Source: an uncultured Methanosarcinales archaeon
GTDB lineage: Archaea > Nanobdellota > Nanobdellia > Woesearchaeales > DATGWN01
DNA: 36,467 nucleotides
NCBI GenBank assembly: GCA_964565095.1
Contig: CAZMDB010000003.1
Location: 1-36,467 of the forward strand
Direction of reading: 5' to 3'
The notes below the pieces were generated by a model. That model made no database searches and was not told the origin of the DNA. It saw only the letters and a list, made by a program, of their open reading frames with translations. The position numbers were made by a program, and so were the translations under genes. Shown one piece after another: positions 11,699-31,417 of the stretch (its first letter is position 1; every line of letters begins with the position of its first letter).

Positions 11699-13672
11699 AT
11701 GAGAAAAAGAGGGCAGGTGAGTTTCTTCATCGTTGCCGGTCTGGTACTTGTGTTCGCTGTGGGTCTTTTTTTAGTCATCATGAGCAATCAGGTCCCGCAG
11801 ACTTCTGATATTGTGCCTGAAGCAAAGACGCCCTTGGAGCGTTTTGTCGCGGGGTGCATGAAGCGTACTGCGATGGATGGGTTGTTCCTCATGGGACTCC
11901 AAGGTGGTTATGTGCAAGTCCCAGAAGCTTTCCGCAGCCATCCGATGCTTGCTATCTCCCCCCATCCGGAAGTGCCGGTCCGTACGCCTGTATGGTATTA
12001 TGAAGGGCAGAGATATGCGCCCAGCATAGCGCAGATGGAGGCAGAGCTTGCTGGATATGTGACGGAGCACGTGCGATATTGCCTGCAGAATCTTAGTGAT
12101 GTGGATGTCATTGAGGGAGTGGTGGAGCTGGGGGAACCGAATGCCACAGTGCGGATAAATACAGGTGATGTGTATGTGCGGATGGGATATGAAGTGGTGA
12201 CAGACCAGGGAGATCGCAGAAGCAGTCGTGATATGTTCGCAATATCCATCCCAGTTACGATCCCTGCTGTGCATGAGGTCGCTACATCGGTCATGGATGC
12301 CTTGGTGAGAGAGGATTATTTGGAGGAGTTCACGATCCATCTCATGGCGGCAGCTGATCCTGTGATTCCCATGAGTGGAATGACACTTTCCTGTGATGAG
12401 CCGGTATGGATAGAGCATCAGGTACAGCAAGAGATTGCAGACCTGTTGTACTACAATATCCCACGGATCCGTCTGCAGAACACCAATCATCGTCCTTATC
12501 AAGAGCCTCAGCGCGCATATGAGAAATACTCGGATCTTTCCATGGAGGAGTTCGAGAGCCGTTATTGCACCGAGAAGGGATGTACCTTGCCTGATCGGCC
12601 GTCGGATCATTTCGAGTATACGCAGCTGCAATTCGATGCAGGACTCCCCGCAGGCGTGGATGATGAACGCATCAGTGTCTCTTTCCGTTATCTTCCTCAT
12701 TATCCATTCATCATGAATGTGCGGCCGAGTTCAGACGGACAGATGCGTTCTGTGACAGAGCAAGGTGAATCGGAGTATCTGGATTTTTTCTGCATGAATG
12801 TGTACCATTTTACCTACGATCTCATATTCCCAGTAGAGGTCGTAGTCCACCAGGAAGGAGCGTATGGGGACGGTACAGATATGGTGCTTCGCTATACGAT
12901 ACCGGTGATGATAGAGAAGAATCTGCCATCAAAAACCTCTTTCAGTTCAGTCCACTTGATGCCTCAGCAGGGAGATGAAGCTTTCTGCAATAGCACTTTT
13001 GATCAGGATACCCACATCTATGCGTTGGATACGGTGACCGGAGAGCGGATAGGTGAGGTGGATGTTTCTTTCGATTGCATCAATATGCGCTGTCCTCTTG
13101 GATCGACCAGAAGTGAACTTAATGGCGTGCAGCGATTGACGACCCGCCTTCCATCTGGGTGTTATGGAGGCATCATCCGTGCTCAGAAGCAAGGATATGT
13201 GTCCGACAGCATGCAGGTGCGTGGAGACGAAGATGGAGTGGAGCTTCGCCTGCATCCGTTACGGCCCGTATATTATCGAGTGGATATGTCGCAGAATAAT
13301 CTTCATTCTGCTGTTCCAAGCGCCCCGGTACCTCTGACCGACCGACAGGTGGCGTATGTGACGTTGCAGAGCCTGGATATGGATTATAAGGAATCATTTG
13401 TCTATGATCCCACACAGCAGGCGCAGTATCTCGAATTTCTTGCTGGCGGCGGTTCCTATAATCTGACGGTCTATGTCTATGATGATAGTGTGCTGATCGG
13501 CGGATATGCAGGCACGATTGAGGTGGGGGATGCACAGATGCAGAAGATGCTCATAATCCACGCATATGAGCAGATACCTCATCCGCAGGATACAGTGTCA
13601 GCGGGAAAACTATATATGTTCCTTAAAGAAGATGAAGAATACAAAGCATCATATGTTCCTGAATGGAGATGA
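11699..13672 (+). CDS. Large extracellular protein with a class III (archaeal prepilin-type) signal peptide
   Basis: MRKRG|QVSFFIVAGLVLVFAVGLFLVI matches the PibD/FlaK cleavage pattern (basic residues, G|Q, hydrophobic stretch). Paired Cys and a peptidase-regulatory-like beta domain (AQKQGY). Confidence 0.8.
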   Translation: MRKRGQVSFFIVAGLVLVFAVGLFLVIMSNQVPQTSDIVPEAKTPLERFVAGCMKRTAMDGLFLMGLQGGYVQVPEAFRSHPMLAISPHPEVPVRTPVWYYEGQRYAPSIAQMEAELAGYVTEHVRYCLQNLSDVDVIEGVVELGEPNATVRINTGDVYVRMGYEVVTDQGDRRSSRDMFAISIPVTIPAVHEVATSVMDALVREDYLEEFTIHLMAAADPVIPMSGMTLSCDEPVWIEHQVQQEIADLLYYNIPRIRLQNTNHRPYQEPQRAYEKYSDLSMEEFESRYCTEKGCTLPDRPSDHFEYTQLQFDAGLPAGVDDERISVSFRYLPHYPFIMNVRPSSDGQMRSVTEQGESEYLDFFCMNVYHFTYDLIFPVEVVVHQEGAYGDGTDMVLRYTIPVMIEKNLPSKTSFSSVHLMPQQGDEAFCNSTFDQDTHIYALDTVTGERIGEVDVSFDCINMRCPLGSTRSELNGVQRLTTRLPSGCYGGIIRAQKQGYVSDSMQVRGDEDGVELRLHPLRPVYYRVDMSQNNLHSAVPSAPVPLTDRQVAYVTLQSLDMDYKESFVYDPTQQAQYLEFLAGGGSYNLTVYVYDDSVLIGGYAGTIEVGDAQMQKMLIIHAYEQIPHPQDTVSAGKLYMFLKEDEEYKASYVPEWR

Positions 13673-16600
13673 CAATGACTAGGCGAGAAGGATTGAAGAG
13701 GGCAGTGAAGGCAGATGGTCTTGTCTGGCCCCAGGTGTTTTCTTGTCTGGTAATAGTACTGCTTCTGGGCATGACACCTGCTGTGCAGGCGATTTCGGTG
13801 CGTTCTGTGCAAGCTGTTCCGCGAGCTCGCGAAGCGGTGATCACATGGCAGACAGATGTTTTGGGGAATTCGTTTGTCAATTATACTGATGGGAATACCT
13901 CGCAGATTCTCAAGGATATGTCATATACAGATGATCACAGCATATCAATCACAGGACTTGAACCGAAAAAGCGGTATGAATATCAGGTGGTGTCTGTGGG
14001 ACTTGATGTGCCTGAGAAGGCAAAGAGTGATTGGCTTTCTTTTACGACTACGCCGGAGCTTTCGCAAGAACTTTTTTTCAACGCTGACATACCTGCCTAC
14101 ACGAATGGACAACCAGTTACTATCGAAGGGACAACGAATAAGGAAGCGCATGTGATCGTATATGTGGATGGCCTGCCTGCAGCAACCGAATATGCGGATA
14201 CGAACGGCAGTATCAGCGTGCGCAACGTGCGTATGGCGCGAGGGCGCAATGTCAGTCATGTCATGATTGAAGTGCAGCATCCTGCTACTGACAATATCCT
14301 GCAGAAGAACTATACTTTGCGGCTCGACCGGAAGGCTCCTACCATACACATCAATCCGATCCAGACTACCTCAACCACCGGGACAGTGCAGATAGAAGGC
14401 AGTGTCAGCGAATATGTGCGCATAGAGATATTCACCAAGAACGATGACGATGAGGTCGAAGACCAATTCAATCAGGAGGTAAATGATACGTTCTCTGCTA
14501 GTCTGCATCTCAATGACGGTCGTAATCTTATCAAGATGTTTGCCACGGATGCGGCCGGTAACGAGGTATCTCTGACAAGAACGGTATTTGTGGATACCGA
14601 GCCTCCGACTATCCTCAAGCATAATATCCATGACCTTGATCCAGCGTATTCACCGTCAGTGACCATCGAGGGTCAGGTCAGCGAGCCGAACATCCCTGTG
14701 CGTATCTATGTAAATCCGGATGATACCAAGAATGGGATTCATGTGTGCTCTGATGGTCTTGATAATGACGGGGATGGGCTCACGGATTATCTGCATGATC
14801 CCGGATGCGAATCACCTGATGATGTCTCAGAGATAGATCTCGGGCTGAATACTGCATGTTCGGATGGCAAGGATAATGATAACGATGGCCGGATCGATTT
14901 CTTGGATGATCCTGGCTGTGATTCTGAGAGCGATAATAGTGAAGAAGATTATAACGCCACAGTTACCGAGTGTAATGATGGTGTGGATAATGACATGGAT
15001 GGGAAGGTGGACTATCTGGAGGATGAGGGGTGTTCCAGCCTGAAGGATCAGAGTGAAGATAGCGAGAACGAGAATGTCGATTATTACGAGACCTACGCAG
15101 ATGAGGAAGGCCATTTCTCAAAGGACGTGACGCTGTCGCATGCATTGAGTTTGCGTAATCTGAAATTGAGCGAATCTGTCGAGGTCCTTCGGGATAAGGA
15201 TGTTGCGGGTATGGATGATTATCAGAAGTCCGACGGAGAATGGGCAGGAGAGGCTGCCTACGATACTGCTGGTGCTCCGGGTGACGAGGATTCCGCCAGG
15301 AATCTCATCCGCATCGTTGCCATCGATAAAGTTGGGCAGCGTGACACCGTGGAAGGAGAGATACGGTATGCTACTTGTGGAAAAGGCGGTGAATGGAATA
15401 TTGTCATGGGTGAAGTGTATCCAGGCATCATCCAGCCGGACCTTCTTTTCGAAGGGGCCGCACAGATCACATTCACGTTGGATCTGCAGTATTTCGGCAC
15501 AGGGGAGGAAGCGTACGTCTCTGCGGTATCCATGAGCAGCCGTGATCTCTCTGTTGCCGATAATAAGGATTTTGCCCCCAGCCAGGTGCTCAATCCGTCT
15601 TCAGGCTGCAGGATCTATCCGGAAGGACGCGTAGACAACAAGGCCTATGTGGTCTGTAATCTTAACAAGTACCCCCCCGAGCGATTGCGGGATGAGAATG
15701 AGGCATATGAAAAGCTAGAGGATATGGAGTCCTTCGTGTTCCCTCTCAAATTGCAGTTGGATTATGAATATGTCAATGCATATGGTGAACGCAAATCCAA
15801 GTTCCAGGAGAATTGTTTCGACATTGAACTTTTCATCGATCGTCGTCTTCCACCCGACAAAATTCCGGAGGGACTGCTTGAAGGAAGTGTCAATGCCCTC
15901 AACAAGACGATCGATGCCATAGATACGGTGCTCAAGCCGCTGCGGACCATCACTCTTGCTACTGCTGGAGCTTGTCTGGCGACGCATCTGGGTCTCTTCT
16001 TCCAGACGGCTTCACTCGAATATGCATGTCTCGGGATGCAGCAGAATGAGCTGCCTGCACTGGAACAAGCGCTTCGTGGGGCTGAGGATGGAGAGGAGGA
16101 TACAGCCATCGCTACAGTCTGTGAGAAAGGGGGTAAGGACGGCGATGATCAGAATCCTCTGGGGACCACCTGTAATGGATGTGCTGAGGCTGTCAAGCAG
16201 GTCATCAAGCTGCAGAAATTCTATGCAGGAGTCTGTGATCGTATCATGTGTCCATCGACCCCGACTGCTCAGAAGTATATCGAGGATATCAATCGCAATG
16301 ATGCCAGTGCCCGGACAAGCGCCTGCGATACGGTGGGCGGACAGCGCAATCCCTATATCCAGACCGCGCAGCATGCTATTGAGACCAATGATGAATTTAC
16401 CAAGGAGAAGGGGTGCGGAAAGGAGTACTATGATCAGTGGTCGACCTCATGCCTTGCCTACTCTGTCGGAGGGGACAATATCGTAGAGGCTTCGAAGAAT
16501 CTGGGACGCGATGAGAATGAGAGCAAGCGTTTCGGTCTGCAGGGGATGCTGAATCGGCTCAACAATCTGGACTTCTGCAAGGTTGCTGAAGACAAGAATA

Positions 16601-19600
16601 ATCGTTCGTTCACCTATGGCGGGAGTGCGTACATCTATGATGAGGAGCAGGGCTGCCATGTGATGGGAGATGATCCCTATTATCAGCTGGTAAAGCAGTC
16701 TGGATCGTTCATGGACAATTCCCATGTGCAGGATAATAGGGCAAATATAGGGGTCCATAAGTATGACAGTCAGACAGAGGAAATGTTCTCTGAGAGGGGG
16801 TTGACAAAATGTGTGCGCCTAGATGACCGTGGAGATCTGTATTATGTGCCTGTTGATGAGAGGACAGGCAATCCGGTGCAATTCGATGTGCAGCGGACTG
16901 ATAGGATGATGACGCGTTTGGCACCTCCTGACGGTCGCCAGACGGTAAGGGTGCAGCACGTAGGGTCTGTGGAAAGGAGCGATGATACCTATTATACATT
17001 TGTGGACCAGAACAACCGTCTGTACTCCGTGAAGGATGCCGATGGTCTAGGCGTGGAAGGTACACTCGATAAGCTTCAATCAGGCACCAATCTGGATGAT
17101 CCACCCCGGATGGCAGGATACCAGGGATACGAACATGTGATGAAGGGCAGGGATAGTTCCAAGCTAGCCTACAAGCCAGCAAGCGCGGTCGAGAATCTTG
17201 ATGAGAAGCAGCGTACAGCTCATGGTTATTCCAGGGTACGTGGTCCGGAAGCTTTACGGCAGGACAAGGTACCTGATGTGCTGATCGACAGCAAGTCAAG
17301 TTTTATCAATTCGGTGCGATGTGTCTGCCTTCCGGCAATATCAGGATATCTGCAGCAGATACGCAGCATCCTGTCGGCAATACGCAATTGTCTCCAGGGA
17401 GTGCTGCTCACCAAGTCATTCAAGTCAGGCATGTGCAAAGCTGTTCTGACGCAATATCTGTGCGATTGGATTTTCGAGGCTATCGGATGCTTTGTCAAAG
17501 CGGCAGGAATGAGCGATCCACAGATGAAGGGAGAGGCGCAACGAGGCAGCCTCTCTGAGTTGCAGAAAGTCTTCACTGCGGTGGGACGTGCAGGCAAGAG
17601 CGTGAATACCTATGCGGCCAACCGGTATGGAGAGACCGGGACATTCAATGCCTTGTTCACGCAGCGTAAGCTGATTCACGCCGTATGCCTGGCGGCTTTC
17701 GGGTACGACTGGATACCTGATCTGGAAGCGACGATCAACATGGGAAGCGAAGGATTCGCCCTCAATTCATCAGGAATGGTCTATCCTGCGACTCGTCGGT
17801 TCATGTCGGCCAACCCCATGCGGCAGGGAGAAGCGACGTTCGTGTATCATGTAGGGTATTTCCTTGCTGCAGGTGCCGACGTCAATTATCAGTTGGAGCT
17901 GATCTGCTCCCGCGACAACTCTTGCAATGCGGATGAAGGGTTTGAAGCTGGTCGCTGCGATTGTTCATGGGGAGCTGGGGTAGCTCCGCAGTATCCGCAG
18001 AATATCGCGTCAGATATGCAGACTCCGCAGAACAACGTATATGGATACGCTCCTACCGGGCCTGCAGGCGGAGGTAATCTCCTGGCTGGACGCAGCTACA
18101 TCCTTGATTCAGGATTCCTCAAGGCAGGTGAGAGCACTTCAGGAGAGGGCGAGGTCTATCGGAAGGTCATCGATACGGTCCGTTATGACAAGGCACGGCT
18201 GAGCTGGACACCCACTGCATCCGGCGGTGAACCAGGAGAGGCGATAATAGATATCCGCTCGGTAGGGGACAAACCGCCTTTGCAATGCCAGTTCAATATG
18301 CAGCTGCTGCAATTTGCCTGTCCGTTTGAGATACGGCAGGATGGCGAGGTCTTCTTTACTGAGCCTCCCTACATAAAGGACGAGAAAGGCATCTACGCTC
18401 AAGGGGACAAGATTGAAGTGGCTATACCGGTCAAAGTCATGTATCCGGATAATCTGCCGCGCGAAGAGAAGAATCTGAAATATGCCAAGCTTACGTTGAA
18501 GAATCAATATGACCAGGTCGTCAATACGCCTTTGATCACCAATCCATTCGATCTTCTCCAGTCAGGTACTGTCGTGCTCCCTGCCGGCAAGACGAAGCTG
18601 AGCATCGGCGGGTCTCAGGAACAGTATGTGGCAAGTGACCTGCGTTCGCTGTCTAAGATATCTCCTCTTCTTAAGGAGAGTGAACTGCAGAATATCTATG
18701 GAGGATTCGAGCGTGAGATGGCGTTGGACATTACGTTGAGCACACAGAATGATGAGGTTGTCTGCGATGCGCAACTCCAGGATCTGGAACGTAGGGAGAA
18801 TGAATGGCATATGGTTGGCAATACACGCAAGATCGGCTGCGAGTATAACCGGGGACGGGTGCGCCTGACAGATGCTACGGTTGTGGATGGCCGCATGGGT
18901 TTCTCTGTTAACTCCGCGTTCATCAAGAAACTGAAGGATGAGAAGATCGGAAATGGCATCTTTTTCTATCGAAAGAAACAGAATGGCAAGTCGGACATCG
19001 TATGTACGGATGAGGATAGCGAGTACGTGGAGTGGCATGCAGAGGTATCGCTCCATCACAGCGTGCCGAAGAACCCCCGGCGGGATTACGACTGGAATAA
19101 CCAGAGAATCTCAACCCAGGTCGCGGTACATAACGACAAAGAACAGCTTGAGCAGATCCCTATCCAGATCCCCTGTACCCCTACCGATGGCTCACAGGAA
19201 GGAGATTACTGTGAGTTCAACCGATTGCTCGGCAAGGACTGCGCCTGCGGTGACGCGCGATGCACCAGTAAAGTTGATGATGACATGCTGCTTCTGAATA
19301 CCTACTGCAGCGGGGAGAGCGTGACGTGCAAGGAAGTGGATCATGTGTCCGCAGAGGTATGCAGTGTCATCAACCAGGAGGGTAAATCCTCTCCTGGTGT
19401 GGTATCTGAGGTATGTTATTGTGATGCCAAGGGACTTAAGCGTGGAGAAGCAAAGAAGTCGCAGGGCATGGCAGTGTGCGATCCGGGTCAGGTATGCTGG
19501 AAGTATAAGGATGGCCGGTATGGATGCACAAGCAAGGAGAAGGAGGAGAAGAAATCTGAGCCCAAGAAGGACGTATTATCGAGTCCAGCTTCTGCTGAAG

Positions 19601-20184
19601 ATAATGTTGAGAAGGAGGATGCTGATGCATCAGATAAAAAATCTGTTGAAGAGCAAGCTCGATTTTTCCCGAAGATTGCAACGTATTATGGCGAGTGGAA
19701 TCATACAGAGGGAAATATGTATAAAAAGGGGGACGAAACAGCTACTTTTGATCCGGGACAAGATTCTCTATCAGTCATAAACGGAGATGATCAGACGGTG
19801 TATAGTGTGTATTTAGATAATGCCACGAATGTTGGTTATTTTAGGGTCAGCAATTCTCTCGGTTCAATAGATAATAAGTGTAATTGGGCAGAAGAAATCA
19901 GTGGAGACGATATTTACGGGAACCCGATAGGGATTTTTGCATATTGTCTGGAACAAATGCAGAATGGGGGTATCAAAGCGGCATATGGGGAGCAAAACGA
20001 AAGAGTCCTGGTAGTATTAAATAGCAAATATGAAAGCCAGAAGTATGAAATTGAATTGGTTGGAGTAGATGATGTTCTATTTTCACAACATGATGACATC
20101 TTTGTGGTTGATCCAAATAACGTTGTCGATGTGTCTATCCAATCGATGGAGTTGGAAAGCTATTTTGCGGCTGAAGCTACATGA
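13663..20184 (+). CDS. Giant (about 2170 aa) secreted Cys-rich protein: FN3-like and Ig-like domains, Asp-rich Ca-binding-like repeats, Cys-rich core
   Basis: Signal peptide ending AVQA; FN3-like AVITWQTD...ITGLEPKKRYEYQV; Ig-like LNDGRNLIKMFATDAAGN; three CxDGxDNDxDGxxD repeats. Start 13663 or 13669 (ATGA overlap with the upstream stop). Confidence 0.85.
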   Translation: MEMTMTRREGLKRAVKADGLVWPQVFSCLVIVLLLGMTPAVQAISVRSVQAVPRAREAVITWQTDVLGNSFVNYTDGNTSQILKDMSYTDDHSISITGLEPKKRYEYQVVSVGLDVPEKAKSDWLSFTTTPELSQELFFNADIPAYTNGQPVTIEGTTNKEAHVIVYVDGLPAATEYADTNGSISVRNVRMARGRNVSHVMIEVQHPATDNILQKNYTLRLDRKAPTIHINPIQTTSTTGTVQIEGSVSEYVRIEIFTKNDDDEVEDQFNQEVNDTFSASLHLNDGRNLIKMFATDAAGNEVSLTRTVFVDTEPPTILKHNIHDLDPAYSPSVTIEGQVSEPNIPVRIYVNPDDTKNGIHVCSDGLDNDGDGLTDYLHDPGCESPDDVSEIDLGLNTACSDGKDNDNDGRIDFLDDPGCDSESDNSEEDYNATVTECNDGVDNDMDGKVDYLEDEGCSSLKDQSEDSENENVDYYETYADEEGHFSKDVTLSHALSLRNLKLSESVEVLRDKDVAGMDDYQKSDGEWAGEAAYDTAGAPGDEDSARNLIRIVAIDKVGQRDTVEGEIRYATCGKGGEWNIVMGEVYPGIIQPDLLFEGAAQITFTLDLQYFGTGEEAYVSAVSMSSRDLSVADNKDFAPSQVLNPSSGCRIYPEGRVDNKAYVVCNLNKYPPERLRDENEAYEKLEDMESFVFPLKLQLDYEYVNAYGERKSKFQENCFDIELFIDRRLPPDKIPEGLLEGSVNALNKTIDAIDTVLKPLRTITLATAGACLATHLGLFFQTASLEYACLGMQQNELPALEQALRGAEDGEEDTAIATVCEKGGKDGDDQNPLGTTCNGCAEAVKQVIKLQKFYAGVCDRIMCPSTPTAQKYIEDINRNDASARTSACDTVGGQRNPYIQTAQHAIETNDEFTKEKGCGKEYYDQWSTSCLAYSVGGDNIVEASKNLGRDENESKRFGLQGMLNRLNNLDFCKVAEDKNNRSFTYGGSAYIYDEEQGCHVMGDDPYYQLVKQSGSFMDNSHVQDNRANIGVHKYDSQTEEMFSERGLTKCVRLDDRGDLYYVPVDERTGNPVQFDVQRTDRMMTRLAPPDGRQTVRVQHVGSVERSDDTYYTFVDQNNRLYSVKDADGLGVEGTLDKLQSGTNLDDPPRMAGYQGYEHVMKGRDSSKLAYKPASAVENLDEKQRTAHGYSRVRGPEALRQDKVPDVLIDSKSSFINSVRCVCLPAISGYLQQIRSILSAIRNCLQGVLLTKSFKSGMCKAVLTQYLCDWIFEAIGCFVKAAGMSDPQMKGEAQRGSLSELQKVFTAVGRAGKSVNTYAANRYGETGTFNALFTQRKLIHAVCLAAFGYDWIPDLEATINMGSEGFALNSSGMVYPATRRFMSANPMRQGEATFVYHVGYFLAAGADVNYQLELICSRDNSCNADEGFEAGRCDCSWGAGVAPQYPQNIASDMQTPQNNVYGYAPTGPAGGGNLLAGRSYILDSGFLKAGESTSGEGEVYRKVIDTVRYDKARLSWTPTASGGEPGEAIIDIRSVGDKPPLQCQFNMQLLQFACPFEIRQDGEVFFTEPPYIKDEKGIYAQGDKIEVAIPVKVMYPDNLPREEKNLKYAKLTLKNQYDQVVNTPLITNPFDLLQSGTVVLPAGKTKLSIGGSQEQYVASDLRSLSKISPLLKESELQNIYGGFEREMALDITLSTQNDEVVCDAQLQDLERRENEWHMVGNTRKIGCEYNRGRVRLTDATVVDGRMGFSVNSAFIKKLKDEKIGNGIFFYRKKQNGKSDIVCTDEDSEYVEWHAEVSLHHSVPKNPRRDYDWNNQRISTQVAVHNDKEQLEQIPIQIPCTPTDGSQEGDYCEFNRLLGKDCACGDARCTSKVDDDMLLLNTYCSGESVTCKEVDHVSAEVCSVINQEGKSSPGVVSEVCYCDAKGLKRGEAKKSQGMAVCDPGQVCWKYKDGRYGCTSKEKEEKKSEPKKDVLSSPASAEDNVEKEDADASDKKSVEEQARFFPKIATYYGEWNHTEGNMYKKGDETATFDPGQDSLSVINGDDQTVYSVYLDNATNVGYFRVSNSLGSIDNKCNWAEEISGDDIYGNPIGIFAYCLEQMQNGGIKAAYGEQNERVLVVLNSKYESQKYEIELVGVDDVLFSQHDDIFVVDPNNVVDVSIQSMELESYFAAEAT
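14746..15057 (+). repeat. Three intragenic C-x-D-G-x-D-N-D-x-D-G-x-x-D-x4-G-C repeats
   Basis: CSDGLDNDGDGLTDYLHDPGC, CSDGKDNDNDGRIDFLDDPGC, CNDGVDNDMDGKVDYLEDEGC. Confidence 0.9.
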
Positions 20185-21713: not shown

Positions 21714-21914
21714 TTACCTGATTGCCTGACGGACTTGCCGCAGGTGGCGCTCGAAAGTTTTGGGACCATAGCGGGCAGCACGGGCAAGGATGCGTTGCAT
21801 GAGCGTGGCTGCTTCTTCGTATTGGTTCTTCCTGATGCAGCGAGTCATACGCGCATAGAGTTGCTGGAAACTTGGTTCAGAGAGCCTGCCCGAGTATCTC
21901 AAGGTATTCTTCAT
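21714..21914 (-). CDS. Possible small basic helical protein
   Basis: MKNTLRYSG...YEEAATLMQRILARAARYGPKTFERHLRQVRQAIR fills the gap downstream of the Lrp gene but overlaps its 3' end; start uncertain. Confidence 0.35.
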   Translation of the reverse strand: MKNTLRYSGRLSEPSFQQLYARMTRCIRKNQYEEAATLMQRILARAARYGPKTFERHLRQVRQAIR

Positions 21915-22344
21915 TTGCCAGAAAATCCTCCTGTTTGATATCCTCGATGACAAAGAAATCCTGACGATCCTGGATGCTGAATGCATCAATGCTCTCGCAG
22001 AAAATCTGGTATTCCCGAAGATCCTTGAATATCCCTTCGAGCATGATATCATATCCATTGGCGATCTTGTAGAGGGAATTTACCCGATGATGTTTTTCGA
22101 GATGGTGCATGATCGAATCCTTCCGTTCTGGCAGGACCTTGATGATCATGAGTACTTTGAGGGAGAATCCGAGCGCTGAAAAATTCAATAGTGTCGTGTG
22201 CTTTTTTATCAGCGAACCCTCGTATTTCTTGAGACGGTCGTACAAGGTCGATACCGGGATGCCTGTACGTCGCGATGCTTTTGTCAGATTCTCTCTTGCG
22301 TTGCGCCTGAATTGGCTCATGATTAATAGTTCCTTTTGTTCCAT
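21877..22344 (-). CDS. Lrp/AsnC family transcriptional regulator
   Basis: RRNARENLTKASRRTGIPVSTLYDRLKK HTH, LLNFSALGF linker, and a RAM domain with LYKIANGYDIMLE. SD-like GGTGGGGG upstream. Confidence 0.92.
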   Translation of the reverse strand: MEQKELLIMSQFRRNARENLTKASRRTGIPVSTLYDRLKKYEGSLIKKHTTLLNFSALGFSLKVLMIIKVLPERKDSIMHHLEKHHRVNSLYKIANGYDIMLEGIFKDLREYQIFCESIDAFSIQDRQDFFVIEDIKQEDFLANEEYLEILGQAL

Positions 22345-22427
22345 TGCTTCTGCCCCCACCAATAAAATCTATAGTTTCAGTAGGTCTGCAGCGATATTAA
22401 CTTTCTGGGACAAAAAAGCCTGTCAGG

Positions 22428-22445
22428 TTCAGCAGTACTCTGAAT
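22428..22445. promoter_or_regulatory. Palindromic operator TTCAG-CAGTACT-CTGAA(T), copy 1
   Basis: Lies in the divergent Lrp / wHTH-TS intergenic region, abutting TTTATAAG (22448-22455); 16/18 identical to 30841-30858. Confidence 0.6.
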
Positions 22446-22520
22446 CATTTATAAGTAAGATACCAAAAAGGGCATTTTACTGAAGCTAACTTTTTAAATC
22501 ATGAGTGTGTTTCAGTAGTC

Positions 22521-24059
22521 ATGCATCGTTTGCGCGCTGACATACTGTCCCTGTTCCGTTCCAGTGGAGCAGTTTTGTCCACCACCGAGATTGTAGAACG
22601 CCTTTTCTCAGAACAAATTTCAGATCAGGCGGTCAAGGCGAAATTGCACAGGCGGGTGCTCCATCACATCCACCGGCTCATGGATGAGCGTGTTCTGTCG
22701 GTCGAGCAGGTGGGGGCGAAGGGACAAAAATTTTTCTCATTGACACATCCGGTCCAGGGACGACGCACAGCGGTCCAGGAATGGACCCCCGCGCTGCCGA
22801 TCGAACGTTACATGGACAAGGATATCCTGTTCAAGTATGAACCCGACACATGGATCACCCGCATGAACGCCATCTTGCTGGAGGCAAGCAAGTACGATGA
22901 TCTGCGACGGTTCCGTGATGAATTGCTGATACTCTTCGATGTGGTCAATGATGTGGTTCTGGTCAATGATTTCGAGTATCTGGTAGAACGCTACTCGGTC
23001 GAGGAGTTGTTGGAAGTCTTCATCGCTTTGGAACGGGAATGCCGTGATTACAACAAGCGTATCTGTCTGATAATCGACCTGACCAATGTGGAGCATGACG
23101 AAGGGATGGTGCGCTTCTTCCAGGCATTCCTGCCGCTGGATTCGAAGGGTTTCACAGTGATTTTTGATGTGACTCCCAAGGAACTGATGCAGCATACAGC
23201 CCTGTTCGAGAAACTTGTCGGGCTATTTTCACGGTATCGTCTCAAGTTCAATATCAAGAACGACGATCTGCATGCTGCGCCTTTTGGCGTCGGACGGGCG
23301 GGCCCATATACATTTGATCAGGAGGAATGGCGTTCCTATGTGGAGCATCTCTTCCCCGGACCCGGCAGATGCGTGGGCATGGTCCAGTCGAGCGTTATTG
23401 TTGATGTCAAGCAATTCTTCGACGAATTCACCCAGGCTTCCTTGTTCAGCGAGATGATGCAGCAGATCGCCAAATCGCTATTCATGGTCAATTCTTTGCA
23501 ACGCAGGCATACGACTGAATACTTTCAATCCTTATACGACAATGACCTGCATCATAATCTATTGTCTCTGAGCAAGATGGCTGTACGTTTCTGGAATTAT
23601 GAGTTTGAGCATCCTTACATTGATCGTGACGGGGTACTTGAGCTCATCTCATCGATGAAAGAAAAGATGAAGGAATTCTGTTCGATGGAACGCACCATCT
23701 ATCTTTCCTGCGGTATGCCGCGACGTTTCTCGATGGGATTCTCCTGCGCGTATCGCCGCGTCAGCACAGGAAGTCTGCTGGTCGAGTCGTTCCAGAAGAC
23801 ATACCTGCGATCGATGAACGAGATATATTCGAAAAAACTGCATGATACGATGCTGTTCCGTGAGCAATTAGGTGATCTGTTTTCGCTTGGAGATGAGGTC
23901 CGGTTCCAGCGAAAGGGCGTGACTGACCCCCAGAATGTGGTCAGGGAGTTCCAGGCCCTCCTGCATACCTTCAGGTTTCCGTTCTTCTGTTATAATTTCT
24001 CCGAGCCATCAGAGGCTACGGTGACGCTGAATCATTTTCTAGATGGGGGGAGTATATGA
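22521..24059 (+). CDS. Hypothetical protein: N-terminal winged-HTH plus DUF835-like (degenerate RecA/KaiC-fold) region
   Basis: ILSLFRSSGAVLSTTEIVERL..LHRRVLHHIHRLMDERVLSVEQVGAKGQKFFSL resembles a wHTH. DVVLVNDFEYLVE..RICLIID resembles a Walker-B/DUF835-type strand; no Walker A seen. The domain call is tentative. Confidence 0.65.
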   Translation: MHRLRADILSLFRSSGAVLSTTEIVERLFSEQISDQAVKAKLHRRVLHHIHRLMDERVLSVEQVGAKGQKFFSLTHPVQGRRTAVQEWTPALPIERYMDKDILFKYEPDTWITRMNAILLEASKYDDLRRFRDELLILFDVVNDVVLVNDFEYLVERYSVEELLEVFIALERECRDYNKRICLIIDLTNVEHDEGMVRFFQAFLPLDSKGFTVIFDVTPKELMQHTALFEKLVGLFSRYRLKFNIKNDDLHAAPFGVGRAGPYTFDQEEWRSYVEHLFPGPGRCVGMVQSSVIVDVKQFFDEFTQASLFSEMMQQIAKSLFMVNSLQRRHTTEYFQSLYDNDLHHNLLSLSKMAVRFWNYEFEHPYIDRDGVLELISSMKEKMKEFCSMERTIYLSCGMPRRFSMGFSCAYRRVSTGSLLVESFQKTYLRSMNEIYSKKLHDTMLFREQLGDLFSLGDEVRFQRKGVTDPQNVVREFQALLHTFRFPFFCYNFSEPSEATVTLNHFLDGGSI

Positions 24060-24700
24060 TACAGGCAAACACTGCCAAGGAGGCGTGGGCGATGGCCCTG
24101 CAGCATATCCGATCAGAGGGACTGCGATATCTTGATGTGCGTAAACGCACCTGCATAGAGGTACTCAACCTTGCGGTGCAGGTAGAGGCTCCAGAGGATC
24201 ATATCACTGCTCCGATCGAGATTCTTCAGGGTATCAAGGAATGGAGTTACCCTTCGCTGACTGAGATAGCAGAGGTCATGCTTTCAAAGAACAAGAATTA
24301 TTCGTACGGGTATTCCTATGGGACGCGGATATTCGATCATGAAGGAATCGATCAGGTCAATGATTATCTGATCCCGCTGTTGAAGAAGGATCCGATGTCA
24401 CGTCGGGCGGTGCTTACGCTCTTCGATCCACATAAGGATGCATCCCCCTATGCCTCAGATGTTCCGGGAATGGTCTCGATTGATCTGAAGATACGGAAAA
24501 AATGCTTGCACATGACTGCATGTATCCGTTCCAATGACATGTTCATCGGCTGGCCTGCAAATATCTACCAGCTATTCGTACTGCAAGAATACATCGCAAG
24601 CCGCCTGGAATGTGGGCAGGGTCCCATCACCACAATCTCTATGAGCGCTCACATCTTCAAGGATCATCTTCCCTTTATCGCGCAGATAATCAAAGGATGA
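24056..24700 (+). CDS. Thymidylate synthase-fold protein lacking the catalytic cysteine
   Basis: YSYGTRI, DQV, SRRAV, RSND, WPAN and SAHIF are archaeal ThyA-type motifs, but the PC motif reads DVPGM. ATGA overlap with the upstream gene. Confidence 0.88.
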   Translation: MIQANTAKEAWAMALQHIRSEGLRYLDVRKRTCIEVLNLAVQVEAPEDHITAPIEILQGIKEWSYPSLTEIAEVMLSKNKNYSYGYSYGTRIFDHEGIDQVNDYLIPLLKKDPMSRRAVLTLFDPHKDASPYASDVPGMVSIDLKIRKKCLHMTACIRSNDMFIGWPANIYQLFVLQEYIASRLECGQGPITTISMSAHIFKDHLPFIAQIIKG

Positions 24701-25421: not shown

Positions 25422-26126
25422 ATGGAGACATTGTTCGTGCCTGCATACGCATCTGCCACGTATCGGCTACCGGAATCAGTTCTCACGGAGATCTCCTCTC
25501 TTGCTGGAGAGAAGAAGCAGGTAGGCCTATGCTCCGCGGTCCAGTTTGTCAGGTCGCTGCCAGGTATGCGAGAACAGTTGGAAAGGGCAGGGTACTCTGT
25601 GAGCATGATCACGGGGACGCGCAGCAGAAAAGAGGGTCAGGTGCTCGGGTGTGACGCGCCAGAGAATGTTGATGTGGGTCTGGTCCTATATGTGGGCGAT
25701 GGCATGTTCCATCCCCGTGGCGTGCAATTGAAGAATCCGGTCGAAGTGCTTGTATATAATCCATTCAGTGAGAAGCTACAATGCATCTCAGAAAAGGATG
25801 CGGAACGCCTGCGTCGGCGACAGCAAGGTGCGTATCTGCGATTTCTTGAGTCTGCGGCGGTAGGTGTCCTGATCAGTCTAAAGCCAGGGCAGTGCAGGAT
25901 TGCGCTGTATGAAGGTATACGTAAAAAGTTTCCATCGAAAAAATACTATCCAGTGATTTTTGATAGCATCGATTTCTCCTCTCTCGAGGACTTTCCATTC
26001 ATCGACGTGTGGGTCAATACTGCGTGTCCCAGGATAGGCTATGAGGATGTTACGCGTGCACAGAAGCCGGTACTGAATGCGGAGTATCTGCTCTCATCTG
26101 AGGTTCCTCCGGAGAGTGATGGATGA
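25422..26126 (+). CDS. dph2: Diphthamide biosynthesis protein Dph2, short form
   Basis: GQVLGCD, YVGDGMFHP, GVLISLKPGQ, DVWVNTACPRI; 234 aa. Confidence 0.9.
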   Translation: METLFVPAYASATYRLPESVLTEISSLAGEKKQVGLCSAVQFVRSLPGMREQLERAGYSVSMITGTRSRKEGQVLGCDAPENVDVGLVLYVGDGMFHPRGVQLKNPVEVLVYNPFSEKLQCISEKDAERLRRRQQGAYLRFLESAAVGVLISLKPGQCRIALYEGIRKKFPSKKYYPVIFDSIDFSSLEDFPFIDVWVNTACPRIGYEDVTRAQKPVLNAEYLLSSEVPPESDG

Positions 26127-26702: not shown

Positions 26703-26874
26703 TGTTGCTGTCAGGATCATTTCGATCCTCGTGATCATATTTCTTGTGTTCTGGATGGTCCTTCTGGGGACGGGGCGTATACGGGGTCTTGTGTTCTGGG
26801 TCCCGCTTGCTATTGCAGCAATTTTCGCATACTGGCTTCTGCCTCGGCTGAAGAATCAGAGTGGTTCAGCATAG
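26695..26874 (+). CDS. Small two-TM membrane protein
   Basis: MNDVAVRIISILVIIFLVFWMVLLGTGRIRGLVFWVPLAIAAIFAYWLLPRLK; start overlaps the end of the previous gene. Confidence 0.65.
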   Translation: MNDVAVRIISILVIIFLVFWMVLLGTGRIRGLVFWVPLAIAAIFAYWLLPRLKNQSGSA

Positions 26875-28088
26875 AATATGTTGTGTTTGTCACGGGTGAT
26901 CCGTAATCGTACCTGCTGATCTGGTTCGTAATTCTTGCGGTTGCCGTGCTTGTCCAATTTAGGGAGGAACGTGATGGTGCGCTCTTGGGCAGCAGCAAGA
27001 ATCTCGTGCGGGTTATGACCAGGTCCGATCACTCGGGCCTCTACTATCGCGTTCTTGTTGAAGGGTTTGGCAAGCTGCTTCACCTTGCGGATCCGGAAGT
27101 CCTTCGGCATGTTCATGATGAGTGGAACATCGTATTCAACTTCCAGGTCGTGGAGACGTTGCCTGAACGTGTCCCAGTCGATCTGCTTCTGGAAGAAGCG
27201 TCCGCCTTTGTAGTTGAGGTAATTCTGGATGCCGAGGGTGACTGAGTGCTCCCTGGCAAATTCGATCATCTCTCTGATGCCTGCGTCATTGACCCCCTGG
27301 AGCCAGATGGGCGCAATGAGCAGATCCATCTTTTTATGGTTGGCGATATAGGTGGCGATCTTCTTGAGGCGGTCCGTGTCCACAGCTCGGCCTTCCAGTC
27401 GGCTTGCCAGTTCGCTGTCAAAAGTATTTATGGAGATATTGATGCGTGTCATTCCGGCATCAGCCAATTGATCGATGTATTTTTCGGTGAGCAATGTCCC
27501 GTTAGTGTCAGTGGTGATCTGCGTGACTGCCGGGATCTCTCTGAGTTTTCTGATCAGATACAGCATGTCCCCGTACAGGAACGGTTCCCCATGGCAGGAG
27601 AAATGCAGTTCGACTTCGTCCTCCGGGGAGGTCAGGCCCTTCTCCCGCAGCACCCTGCGCGTCTCTTCGACCAGATAATCGGCTTCTACAAGAAAATCTA
27701 CTTGTTTGTCCTGAGCGCCTTCGGAGACCGAGCAGTAGAGGCAACAATGGTTGCAGCTTGTCACGGGCTTGAGTTCAAGTAAAGACGTGCCGCGGTCCAC
27801 AATGCCGAAGTAGTTGGTGCCTATCAGTGGGATTCCTGAGTTCTTATGCACATAGGTAGTCGCAAGACCGGAGATCTTGTTGGTCAGGTGGCAGAGACCC
27901 TCGTCTATCGCGGACCGTACGATCGGCGCAACATCCTCCCCGACCAGAAGAGCGCCATCCTCGCACTGCCATTCTCCCAGGTCGTCAAGATATTCTTTGG
28001 AGAGATCGAAGTACCAGTTCTGCATCACATGGCCTCTGACGTTGTCTTCCTGCTCCCGGAAGTGGATAATCTCGAATTGCAGTCGCAT
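26856..28088 (-). CDS. Radical SAM protein with C-terminal TRAM-like domain (COG2100-like)
   Basis: IPLIG..FGIVDRGT..LELKPVTSCNHCCLYCSVSEG (CxxxCxxC), GEP, TNGTLL and terminal ITRDKHNIF. Start 28088 chosen because a TTTTTAAA box lies about 23 nt upstream. Confidence 0.9.
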   Translation of the reverse strand: MRLQFEIIHFREQEDNVRGHVMQNWYFDLSKEYLDDLGEWQCEDGALLVGEDVAPIVRSAIDEGLCHLTNKISGLATTYVHKNSGIPLIGTNYFGIVDRGTSLLELKPVTSCNHCCLYCSVSEGAQDKQVDFLVEADYLVEETRRVLREKGLTSPEDEVELHFSCHGEPFLYGDMLYLIRKLREIPAVTQITTDTNGTLLTEKYIDQLADAGMTRINISINTFDSELASRLEGRAVDTDRLKKIATYIANHKKMDLLIAPIWLQGVNDAGIREMIEFAREHSVTLGIQNYLNYKGGRFFQKQIDWDTFRQRLHDLEVEYDVPLIMNMPKDFRIRKVKQLAKPFNKNAIVEARVIGPGHNPHEILAAAQERTITFLPKLDKHGNRKNYEPDQQVRLRITRDKHNIFYAEPL

Positions 28089-28177
28089 GGAGGCAGAGAA
28101 CTTATGCCGTTTTAAAAAAGTGATGGCCATATTCTTCCCGCCCTTGCATTTTAAATAGGGGTGGAGAATTCTTCCCG

Positions 28178-30835: not shown

Positions 30836-30862
30836 CAATATTCAGCAGTGTTCTGAATATTG
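30836..30862. promoter_or_regulatory. Palindromic operator CAATATTCAG-N7-CTGAATATTG, copy 2
   Basis: Perfect 10-bp inverted repeat just upstream of BRE/TATA (CGCAAA-T-TTTATAAA, 30871-30885) of rpl44e; the core matches 22428-22445. Confidence 0.62.
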
Positions 30863-30909: not shown

Positions 30910-31227
30910 ATGAAAATTCCTAAGCGTATCAAGCGACTATGCCCGAAATGCGGCAAGCATACGGAGCATACCGTCAAGAATCAGACGAATAGGGGACTGA
31001 ACAAGACCAACACTATGACGCGTGGTGCAATCAATCGTGTCATGGCGCGTGGACTGCGTCGCGGTACGGGAAACCAGGGGCGTTTTTCCCGTAAGCCGAT
31101 CGGATCCTGGAAGATGACAGGACAGAAGACCACCAAGAAGCTTGACCTGCGGTACACCTGTACTGAATGCAAGAAGACGCATATGCAGAAAGCAGGAATC
31201 CGTGTGAAGCGTGTGGAGCTCATATGA
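30910..31227 (+). CDS. rpl44e: 50S ribosomal protein L44e (eL42)
   Basis: MKIPKRIKRLCPKCGKHTEH...KTTKKLDLRYTCTECKK. True start is the ATG at 30910. Confidence 0.96.
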   Translation: MKIPKRIKRLCPKCGKHTEHTVKNQTNRGLNKTNTMTRGAINRVMARGLRRGTGNQGRFSRKPIGSWKMTGQKTTKKLDLRYTCTECKKTHMQKAGIRVKRVELI

Positions 31228-31237
31228 GGGGAGTAGT

Positions 31238-31417
31238 ATGCTGAAAGAATCAACAAGCAAATTCATCAAGGTGCGATGCCCTAGCTGCAAGAATGAGCAG
31301 GTAGTCTTCGGAAAGGCTTCTACGGATGTAGAGTGTGTCATCTGTGGCAAGGAGCTTGCCTCGTCAGCCGGGAGCAAGGCGAAAGTCAAGGCACGCATCC
31401 TGGAAGTTCTTGATTAG
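31238..31417 (+). CDS. rps27e: 30S ribosomal protein S27e
   Basis: SKFIKVRCPSCKNEQVVFGKASTDVECVICG..LA...GSKA; GAGGGG SD. Confidence 0.97.
   Translation: MLKESTSKFIKVRCPSCKNEQVVFGKASTDVECVICGKELASSAGSKAKVKARILEVLD

Follow-up and report, generated by a model that had tools for sequence, protein, structure and literature searches.

A thymidylate synthase-like protein lacking the catalytic cysteine and its winged-helix, ribonucleotide reductase-like partner: a linked and separately regulated gene pair of host-dependent archaea, probably concerned with nucleotide sensing or handling

Why would tiny, host-dependent archaea keep two linked genes whose products are shaped like two key enzymes of DNA-precursor synthesis and lack the reactive residues of both? 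The question is raised by a locus in contig CAZMDB010000003.1 (assembly GCA_964565095.1), the 36,467 nucleotides of which are the whole stretch of DNA analysed and are called the window here. It comes from an uncultured archaeon of the Woesearchaeales, whose genome (label G000) comprises 1.47 Mb in 149 contigs and is 91% complete. The locus contains three open reading frames (ORFs). An Lrp/AsnC-type regulator of 161 amino acids (aa) is encoded on the reverse strand (21877..22362, counted from a TTG start with an in-frame ATG six codons downstream), and divergently from it, on the forward strand, lie the genes for a 512-aa protein (22521-24059) and a 214-aa protein with the fold of thymidylate synthase (TS; 24056..24700). 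The stop codon of the former and the start codon of the latter overlap by 4 nt (ATGA). A preliminary description, made from the sequence alone, had delineated the same three ORFs and their overlap, and both are confirmed in the DNA. The two forward genes are a linked, separately regulated pair, probably devoted to a kind of nucleotide sensing or handling that has not been described before. A literature search, thin on subscription journals, returned no description of a pair of TS-like and ribonucleotide reductase (RNR)-like proteins or, for these archaea, of TS homologues devoid of the cysteine; in the part of PMC10266531 available to the search, the canonical ThyA of nanohaloarchaea is mentioned, the Cys-less TS-like family is not.

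The smaller protein is readily recognised as having the TS fold. It matches the Pfam model PF00303 (Thymidylat_synt) with 61.9 bits (cut-off 24.3) and the NCBIfam equivalog model of the methanogen-type TS, TIGR03283, with 128.1 bits, under the cut-off of 174.55; the latter alignment runs end to end, from residues 1-203 of the protein to positions 2-196 of 201 of the model. The structure predicted by AlphaFold2 (predicted local distance difference test score, pLDDT, 94.7) finds its best Foldseek match in the CMP hydroxymethylase MilA (5jnh, template modelling (TM) score 0.84), and ThyA structures follow with TM scores of 0.69-0.73. The motifs said in the preliminary description to be retained are all present: SRRA (R116-R117), RSND (158-161), GWPAN (N169) and SAH (H199). 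In ThyA, the nucleophilic cysteine (C146 of the Escherichia coli enzyme) attacks C6 of deoxyuridine monophosphate (dUMP). HMMER alignments place Gly138 of the window protein opposite this cysteine in Bacillus subtilis ThyA (1bko) and in MilA (5b6d), as had been claimed. The DNA at this site reads gat gtt ccg gga atg, and the GGA codon (24467-24469) differs from TGT and TGC by two changes. An independent second study of metagenomes (run X2) yielded a contig identical to the window over 23905-24564, which rules out an assembly error, in line with the earlier view that a miscalled base was unlikely.

Is the loss of the nucleophile peculiar to this genome? A protein search returned 80 homologues of the TS-like protein at E<=1e-3, from which an alignment of 76 sequences was built (the window protein and 75 homologues; P0001, the cluster to which the window protein itself belongs, three weak matches of ~340-355 aa and a fragment of 119 aa were left out). 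A species-level set of 81 sequences was assembled in addition from the window and 80 loci of species-representative genomes. The nucleophile column holds G49/S20/C6/A1 in the alignment and G48/S24/A8/C1 in the species-level set, and cysteine is entirely absent from 23 of the 76 and from nine of the 81 proteins. Isolated decay is excluded because the column is dominated by Gly, Ser and Ala across the TS-like family, and the missing nucleophile is, as judged from these alignments, a conserved family trait; as to PG rather than PC, a point which the preliminary description had brought up, Cys is lacking at this position in 80 of the 81 species-level sequences, with Gly as the commonest residue. 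In a FastTree phylogeny (LG+gamma) of 93 sequences, rooted on fusion proteins of the MtrA+TS+PterinBD type, computed without the 161-aa partial sequence L068 and printed without support values, the RNR-linked TS-like family forms a single clade with Gly on its deepest branches and several separate origins of Ser and Ala, and Cys is confined to one nested clade of seven.

The remainder of the putative ligand site is under strong constraint. In the species-level set, R31 is kept in 78 of 81 sequences, R116 in 75, R117 in 73, R158 in all, S159 in 79, N169 in 80 and H199 in 78; N160 is retained in 69. Also kept in at least 90% are E35, Y65, Y88, R91, Q100, P137, D161, G165, W166 and S197, among them D161, which we take to be the pterin-contacting Asp of TS. 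In classical TS, a Tyr at the position of Phe201 touches the sugar; Phe replaces it in the window protein and is found in 74 of the 81. Residue 138 shows no covariation with those cysteines of the 512-aa protein that are conserved in part (columns 122, 287, 387 and 397). A TS-like protein longer than 375 aa, as expected of a fused form, was not found either, which is weak evidence, and a PADLOC scan gave no match for the TS-like or the 512-aa protein.

The nature of the 512-aa partner is visible only in structure. Pfam holds no match for it, and nothing rises above any cut-off among 68 family members; the NRDD family (PF13597) is not among the Pfam matches listed (E<=1 for the window protein, and the 25 commonest families over the 68 members). 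The alignment of these 68 orthologues served as input for an AlphaFold2 model with a mean pLDDT of 89.5. The top Foldseek matches of this model in the PDB are RNRs, the best being the class III enzyme of Thermotoga maritima (4com, E 1.6e-8, probability 1.0). An exhaustive VIA-align search gives the class III structures 8p23 (Z 24.1, 372 aligned residues, root-mean-square deviation 3.4 A) and 9d3x (Z 23.9 over 401 residues), followed by RNRs of classes I and II and a small phage RNR (Z 18-21.6) and by glycyl-radical enzymes (Z 11-16), so that all RNR classes outrank the last group. The ten-stranded barrel of RNR/NrdD type spans residues 88 to ~496, with a short tail (22782..24059). It is preceded by a winged helix (residues 1-76, 22521..22748), and residues 1-80 match winged helix-turn-helix (wHTH) domains of the PH1932, Z-alpha, Fur/PerR and MarR types with Z 9-11. 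This domain is as well conserved as the barrel in the 68-orthologue alignment: L47 and K70 are invariant and H43, R44 and N51 nearly so.

The preliminary description had seen in the partner a wHTH joined to an ATPase-like, DUF835-like fold. Its first half holds. The second, refuted by the Foldseek and VIA-align matches to RNRs, finds some echo in weak DUF835 matches of four of the 68 family members (best E 0.0011; E 0.1 for the window protein). With 12.8 bits against a cut-off of 33.1 for the window protein, and a high-confidence model that is an RNR barrel (Z 24 over 372-401 residues), a wHTH plus ATPase-like protein coupled to a pseudo-TS can be regarded as a very improbable description of the pair.

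Which parts of an RNR are left? The finger loop of RNRs, which carries the radical cysteine, lies between the fifth and sixth barrel strands. The model has ten such strands and, between the fifth and sixth, a hairpin (255-257 / 262-264), the tip of which, G258-R-A-G261 (23292..23303), would correspond to that of the finger loop. Both glycines are invariant in the 68 orthologues, position 259 is Arg in 35 and Lys in 26 (together 61/68) and A260 is found in 53. Cysteine is never the commonest residue in any of the columns 244-268, and there is no thiyl-radical Cys at the tip as placed by strand order and a weak profile match. The profile match comes from an hhalign run against ten genuine NrdDs from the same archaeal class; weak as it is (probability 14.6%, E 0.0018), it is collinear, in that residues 288-491 follow NrdD from the strand after the finger loop (SIGVVTINLPR) to the last strand, with GGD paired to TGGT, a common L-P-x-F motif and D295 opposite an Asn of NrdD, and it ends short of both the zinc ribbon and the glycyl-radical motif SRVVGY. 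The 512-aa protein terminates ~20 residues past its last barrel strand, and neither a zinc ribbon nor a glycyl-radical domain is found in it; nor does Pfam report an ATP-cone. Going by the model, the protein joins a wHTH to a barrel that derives from NrdD and is devoid of radical machinery. Profile comparison with the class II RNR of this genome is likewise weak or non-significant, and the link of the family to RNRs is, on the strength of the predicted fold, a structural one.

The barrel has a strongly conserved polar set of its own: D144, R356 and G398 occur in all 68 orthologues, N247, N359 and P400 in 67 and C397 in 65, which yields a near-invariant C397-G398-x-P400 motif, and D295 is nearly invariant. 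The set persists in the most divergent members. A search of 1.84 billion representatives returned 241 matches to the 512-aa family at E<=1e-3, 180 of them at E<=1e-30; full-length matches measure ~480-550 aa, and the shorter ones cover part of the profile. Neither intermediates toward RNRs nor a fused form of ~730 aa occur in the best 150 of the 241, and the family is, at the level of these matches, a closed one. No relative was found in the viral contigs of IMG/VR.

The two genes belong together. An RNR-like gene lies directly upstream of the TS-like gene and on the same strand in 77 of 80 loci; two of the exceptions (L028 and L029) show no RNR-like gene within 4.9 kb, and the third (L068) has no flank. 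The genes overlap in 28 loci (by 4 nt in 19), are separated by 0-30 nt in 38, by 31-200 nt in nine and by more in two, which places 66 of the 77 linked pairs at an overlap or a gap of at most 30 nt. Linkage holds in the opposite direction as well: strong matches to the 512-aa family (E<=1e-99) are present in 15 of 201 sampled genomes of the class, each at least 80% complete, and the TS-like gene adjoins the 512-aa gene in 15 of 15; five further matches near E 1e-3 span the winged helix only. The pair extends over genomes of the Woesearchaeota, Pacearchaeota, Aenigmatarchaeota and Nanohaloarchaeota type, with intact frames and many invariant columns, and occurs in the record of a cultured relative, Nanoanaerosalina halalkaliphila (locus L042).

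The third gene is a less constant companion. The regulator matches PF01037 (AsnC_trans_reg) with 27.2 bits (cut-off 25) and HTH_24 with 17.1 bits, below the cut-off of 21.9, and its scores with the Lrp-type models of NCBIfam stay far under their cut-offs. In 47 of the 77 linked loci an orthologue stands divergently, at a distance of up to 1.3 kb upstream of the RNR-like gene; copies that no contig end truncates have tblastn E values of 1e-16 to 1e-55. The orthologue is elsewhere in the locus in three, absent despite sufficient flank in 18 and not judgeable in nine. The three-gene synteny envisaged in the preliminary description is upheld for the TS-like/RNR-like pair and applies to the divergent regulator in part of the loci only.

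The divergent intergenic region contains a palindrome, TTCAG-N7-CTGAA (22428..22444), followed by a TATA-like TTTATAA, and further half-sites (GTTTCAG / CTGAAGC) at 22374-22380, 22480-22486 and 22509-22515. In 36 of 45 intergenic regions between Lrp-type and RNR-like genes the palindrome is found again (43 occurrences in 9.7 kb), and CTGAA[A/G]C half-sites are repeated in 43 of the 45. The whole 1.47-Mb genome has four such sites, and 53 of the 62 palindromes in 692 kb of related loci are located no more than 500 nt ahead of the RNR-like gene. Of five pair-bearing genomes other than G000, three contain the longer form TTTCAG-N7-CTGAAA, and two of those matches are upstream of the RNR-like gene; the sole genome-wide match in G197 is 43 nt upstream of it, and one of two matches in the complete genome G090 has the same place. 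The palindrome is a predicted operator that is probably bound by the Lrp/AsnC-type protein, an assignment made because the site follows the Lrp gene at two loci, L037 and L038.

A near-copy of the operator (TTCAGCAGT..TCTGAAT) is seen elsewhere in the window, at 30841-30857, as one of the four palindromes of the genome. It is accompanied by another half-site and a TATA-like box and lies upstream of the genes for the ribosomal proteins L44e and S27e (rpl44e/rps27e; 30910-31227 and 31238-31417, Pfam-confirmed).

Could the pair nevertheless be a functionless remnant of thyA and nrdD on its way to decay? Loss of catalytic residues alone would fit such a fate. Intact frames, invariant columns, a fixed and coupled gene order and a conserved operator do not, and decay, excluded by this conservation, hardly deserves further consideration.

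With the folds, the lost residues, their conservation, the linkage and the operator as observed, the reading we favour is that of a locally regulated pair of pseudo-enzymes, to which we assign a probability of roughly 0.4: the two proteins would act as binders of nucleotides, with the winged helix as the signalling element, under local Lrp control. In this three-gene module, conserved among DPANN archaea, the Lrp/AsnC-type regulator would bind TTCAG-N7-CTGAA in the shared intergenic region and so control its own gene and a divergent, translationally coupled operon of two genes. The first product would be a winged helix on a barrel derived from class III RNR, now without zinc ribbon, glycyl-radical domain or thiyl-radical Cys; the second would be a TS fold with the contact residues for dUMP and pterin kept and the nucleophile replaced by Gly, Ser or Ala. 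Both would have been retained for ligand binding, the ligands presumably being pyrimidine (deoxy)nucleotides. Through a putative contact between the two proteins, the pair would signal how the pool of DNA precursors stands, most likely by way of the winged helix of the RNR-like protein, which may bind DNA and provide the regulatory output. In the preliminary description, the ligands envisaged were dUMP, dTMP or folate, and the signal would pass to the wHTH partner and so to transcription. The reading is favoured because both proteins have lost exactly the residues or domains needed for the chemistry and keep those for ligand binding under strong constraint, one protein has a conserved domain of DNA-binding type, and a real RNR, and usually a real TS, co-occur with the pair.

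Several observations weigh against this proposal. The finger loop of the 512-aa protein was located by strand order and by the profile match of 14.6% probability, with no residue-level structural alignment, and the conserved polar set of the barrel would suit catalysis as well as binding. The search for a DNA target of the wHTH of the RNR-like protein gave none, and the sole conserved operator follows the Lrp gene: at L037 and L038, where that gene is unlinked, the palindrome stays beside it and is absent upstream of the RNR-like gene. Nor is the palindrome present upstream of the canonical RNR gene on contig C20 of this genome; the upstream region of the other, on C9, is cut by the contig end. 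Four of 20 carriers (G000, G042, G201 and G204) encode no other TS over the Pfam cut-off, and no thymidine kinase (TK), deoxynucleoside kinase (dNK) or Pfam-type thymidylate kinase (PF02223) was found in the 91% complete genome of the window.

These points lead to the question of whether the pair is an enzyme after all, one that needs neither the TS cysteine nor the RNR radical and that acts, for example, in C5 modification of a pyrimidine, on a substrate activated by a cofactor, as by flavin in ThyX, or by the barrel. In some genomes it could then be the sole source of deoxythymidine monophosphate (dTMP). The residues of the TS ligand site other than the nucleophile are strongly constrained, D161 included, the barrel keeps a conserved polar pocket with its near-invariant C397-G398-x-P400, and the four carriers named above would find their TS in the pair. 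G000, in which TK and dNK are missing, has serine hydroxymethyltransferase (SHMT), present as a fragment. Two structures, 9iqu and 9iqc, are TS-fold flavin-dependent dCMP hydroxylases by their PDB titles alone. On the other side, Gly, Ser and Ala are tolerated alike at the nucleophile position, which points to a small residue rather than to a new catalytic group; the nine Cys-free proteins of the species-level set have no substitute Cys in the same chain; Pfam recognises no cofactor-binding domain; and a wHTH fusion would be unusual for a metabolic enzyme.

The genomic context bears on the same question. The 20 carriers consist of the 15 from the class sample and five reached through loci, and 16 of them match ThyX, or have a second gene of the ThyA family, with scores above the Pfam cut-off. 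Because of these 16, the pair is unlikely, as far as gene content tells, to be a housekeeping TS, and the argument of the preliminary description that a nucleotide-sensing module would suit an archaeon that scavenges nucleotides loses weight. Among the 15, ThyX-family matches occur in nine (three barely over the cut-off; several in frames of 520-620 aa with two tandem matches), a canonical-length ThyA in two and another PF00303 gene in two; G000 and G042 have none of these. Three of the five further carriers have ThyX and/or ThyA. G201, from the Cys-bearing clade, has a sub-threshold ThyX match only, and G204 has no ThyX match and a second PF00303 match that is sub-threshold only. In G000 itself the check for a separate thyA or thyX, already suggested in the preliminary description, yielded neither ThyX nor a second ThyA, nor an NrdD (PF13597), at 91% completeness; two canonical PF02867 RNR genes are present, one with the finger-loop motif TTSPCGEMPL. 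Taken together, an active enzyme appears unlikely, if by no means far-fetched.

A more specific variant has the TS fold, itself without the nucleophile, paired with an RNR-derived barrel that supplies the activating or cofactor chemistry, as a third route to dTMP or to another C5-modified pyrimidine nucleotide. We consider it quite unlikely. If it were true, the pair would be the sole thymidylate route in genomes like this one, because no ThyA, ThyX, TK or dNK was found there.

Two side observations concern the thymidylate supply of these archaea. As to the missing TK, dNK and PF02223 in G000, the genes may be divergent or unassembled, or the supply of dTTP may be unusual. Many ThyX-family matches consist of two tandem Thy1 domains in single frames of 430-630 aa (e.g., G069:C6, G132:C59, G014:C2 and G202:C1); the usual ThyX is a single-domain protein.

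Regulation at the protein level has to be weighed as well. Inactive look-alikes could bind the real RNR, TS or replication proteins and tune or organise the supply of deoxynucleoside triphosphates, with the wHTH tethering the complex to DNA. Inactive homologues of the RNR large subunit with new binding roles are known from herpesviruses and provide a precedent; the fold matches of the barrel include 7rw6, a complex of APOBEC3B with a viral RNR subunit (Z 17.2), and canonical RNR genes are available in this genome as partners. As a rule, however, the TS found in the same genome is ThyX; since its fold is unrelated, a heterodimer with the TS-like protein is unlikely. The RNR type, moreover, differs between carriers (class II in G000; NrdD in G090, G137, G042 and others), and no linkage of the pair to RNR genes was seen. 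A role as scaffold or protein-level regulator is improbable on this balance.

The outcome matters for more than one reason. Public annotations name the TS-like gene 'thymidylate synthase', and metabolic reconstructions could credit DPANN archaea with a route to dTMP that is probably beyond this protein. Its partner gene has no annotation, in keeping with its lack of a Pfam match, and its RNR ancestry is visible in structure only. Should the favoured sensor reading be right, two consecutive enzymes of a pathway would have been turned jointly into a regulatory device; should the pair be an enzyme, it would stand for a new chemistry of pyrimidine C5 modification.

Other genes of the window are of separate interest. 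A protein of 2173 aa, rich in Cys and with a hydrophobic segment at its N terminus (13663-20184, forward strand), probably a giant surface protein, has weak Pfam matches only (glucodextranase domain B and purple acid phosphatase N). Downstream of the pair, a 234-aa ORF for Dph2 of diphthamide synthesis (25422-26126, forward strand) starts to match its profile at ~position 66-90, which means that ~70 N-terminal residues are missing or that the start is miscalled. A 424-aa radical S-adenosylmethionine (SAM) protein (26856-28130, reverse strand) has weak viperin-like matches in PADLOC (E 1.6e-11), and its gene is not conserved beside the module in related loci.

How does the pair compare with known systems? 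Nearest to the TS-like protein are the short archaeal TS (TIGR03283) and the fusions of MtrA, TS and PterinBD-DUF4346 from the same archaeal class. They share with it a compact TS fold of ~200-220 aa, the phosphate-binding Arg, RSND, the uracil-specifying Asn and SAH. The fusions, 476-550 aa long, contain the TS domain in seven of seven cases and, in the five scanned against Pfam, PterinBD-DUF4346 in five and an MtrA-like domain in four. Unlike the TS-like family, which has Gly, Ser or Ala in 80 of 81 sequences and an RNR-like gene upstream, the fusions keep Pro-Cys, and also His-Ile-Tyr, in 7/7 and have no RNR-like gene upstream. Their composition suggests that this TS takes its one-carbon unit via the accessory pterin and corrinoid domains. 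The seven fusions are encoded at loci L087-L093 (genomes G077, G027, G020, G051, G036, G066 and G062), and many genomes of the class encode such proteins.

For the 512-aa protein, the closest known enzyme is class III NrdD (8p23, 9d3x, 4u3e), with which it shares the ten-stranded barrel and the central hairpin, and over the second half of the barrel the two profiles align weakly, in collinear order. The real NrdDs of the class have SMCCRL at the tip and end with C-x-x-C...SRVVGY; the 512-aa family has G-[R/K]-A-G and neither end motif. It further differs from NrdD in the added N-terminal wHTH, the absent ATP-cone and the absence of a Pfam NRDD match. Closer in architecture is a second family, nine wHTH + NrdD-like proteins of ~600-640 aa in the class sample (L105-L113, alignment A4). 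Like the 512-aa family, these have an N-terminal wHTH and an NrdD-type barrel and no radical domain. All nine, unlike the 512-aa family, are recognised by Pfam NRDD, as they are by HTH_24 (E<=1), and hhalign relates them to real NrdD with a probability of 99.8% (E 5.6e-28). Their thiyl Cys is replaced in eight of nine, and they end at a GGH motif, before the radical domain. An ATP-cone, which the alignment had seemed to indicate, is not among the families listed by Pfam at E<=1. Profile comparison of the two families gave no significant match. A TS-like neighbour is found beside one of the nine genes only, and that protein keeps its Cys. From the replaced thiyl Cys and the absent radical domain of this second family it follows that, as far as alignments can tell, winged-helix pseudo-NrdDs are a recurrent theme in these archaea. 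In the ESM Atlas, archaeal HTH/ATP-cone/DUF7347/NRDD clusters from other archaeal phyla are nearest (by language-model features and structure, a lead only).

Two details of this second family are worth recording. A gene for a DUF63 membrane protein adjoins three of its loci, and a gene of ~390-480 aa often follows. At L105 (G037:C22, 2203-7241), the wHTH + NrdD-like gene is followed by the 208-aa TS-like gene with Pro-Cys kept and Asp in place of the uracil-specifying Asn, presumably a dCMP-type signature, and a B12-binding radical SAM gene precedes it; the cluster may modify cytosine nucleotides.

The nearest functional analogue is NrdR, the bacterial nucleotide-sensing repressor of RNR genes, which is composed of a zinc ribbon and an ATP-cone. 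The proposed likeness lies in the joining of a module for DNA binding to one, taken over from RNR, that binds nucleotides; it is an analogy of function and not of family. Where NrdR has its zinc ribbon and ATP-cone, the 512-aa protein has a wHTH and a whole barrel, and neither module of NrdR is matched in it; NrdR controls RNR genes, and here no operator precedes the RNR gene on C20. Should the sensor reading prove right, archaea would have their own counterpart of NrdR, one assembled from complete enzymes no longer in catalytic use.

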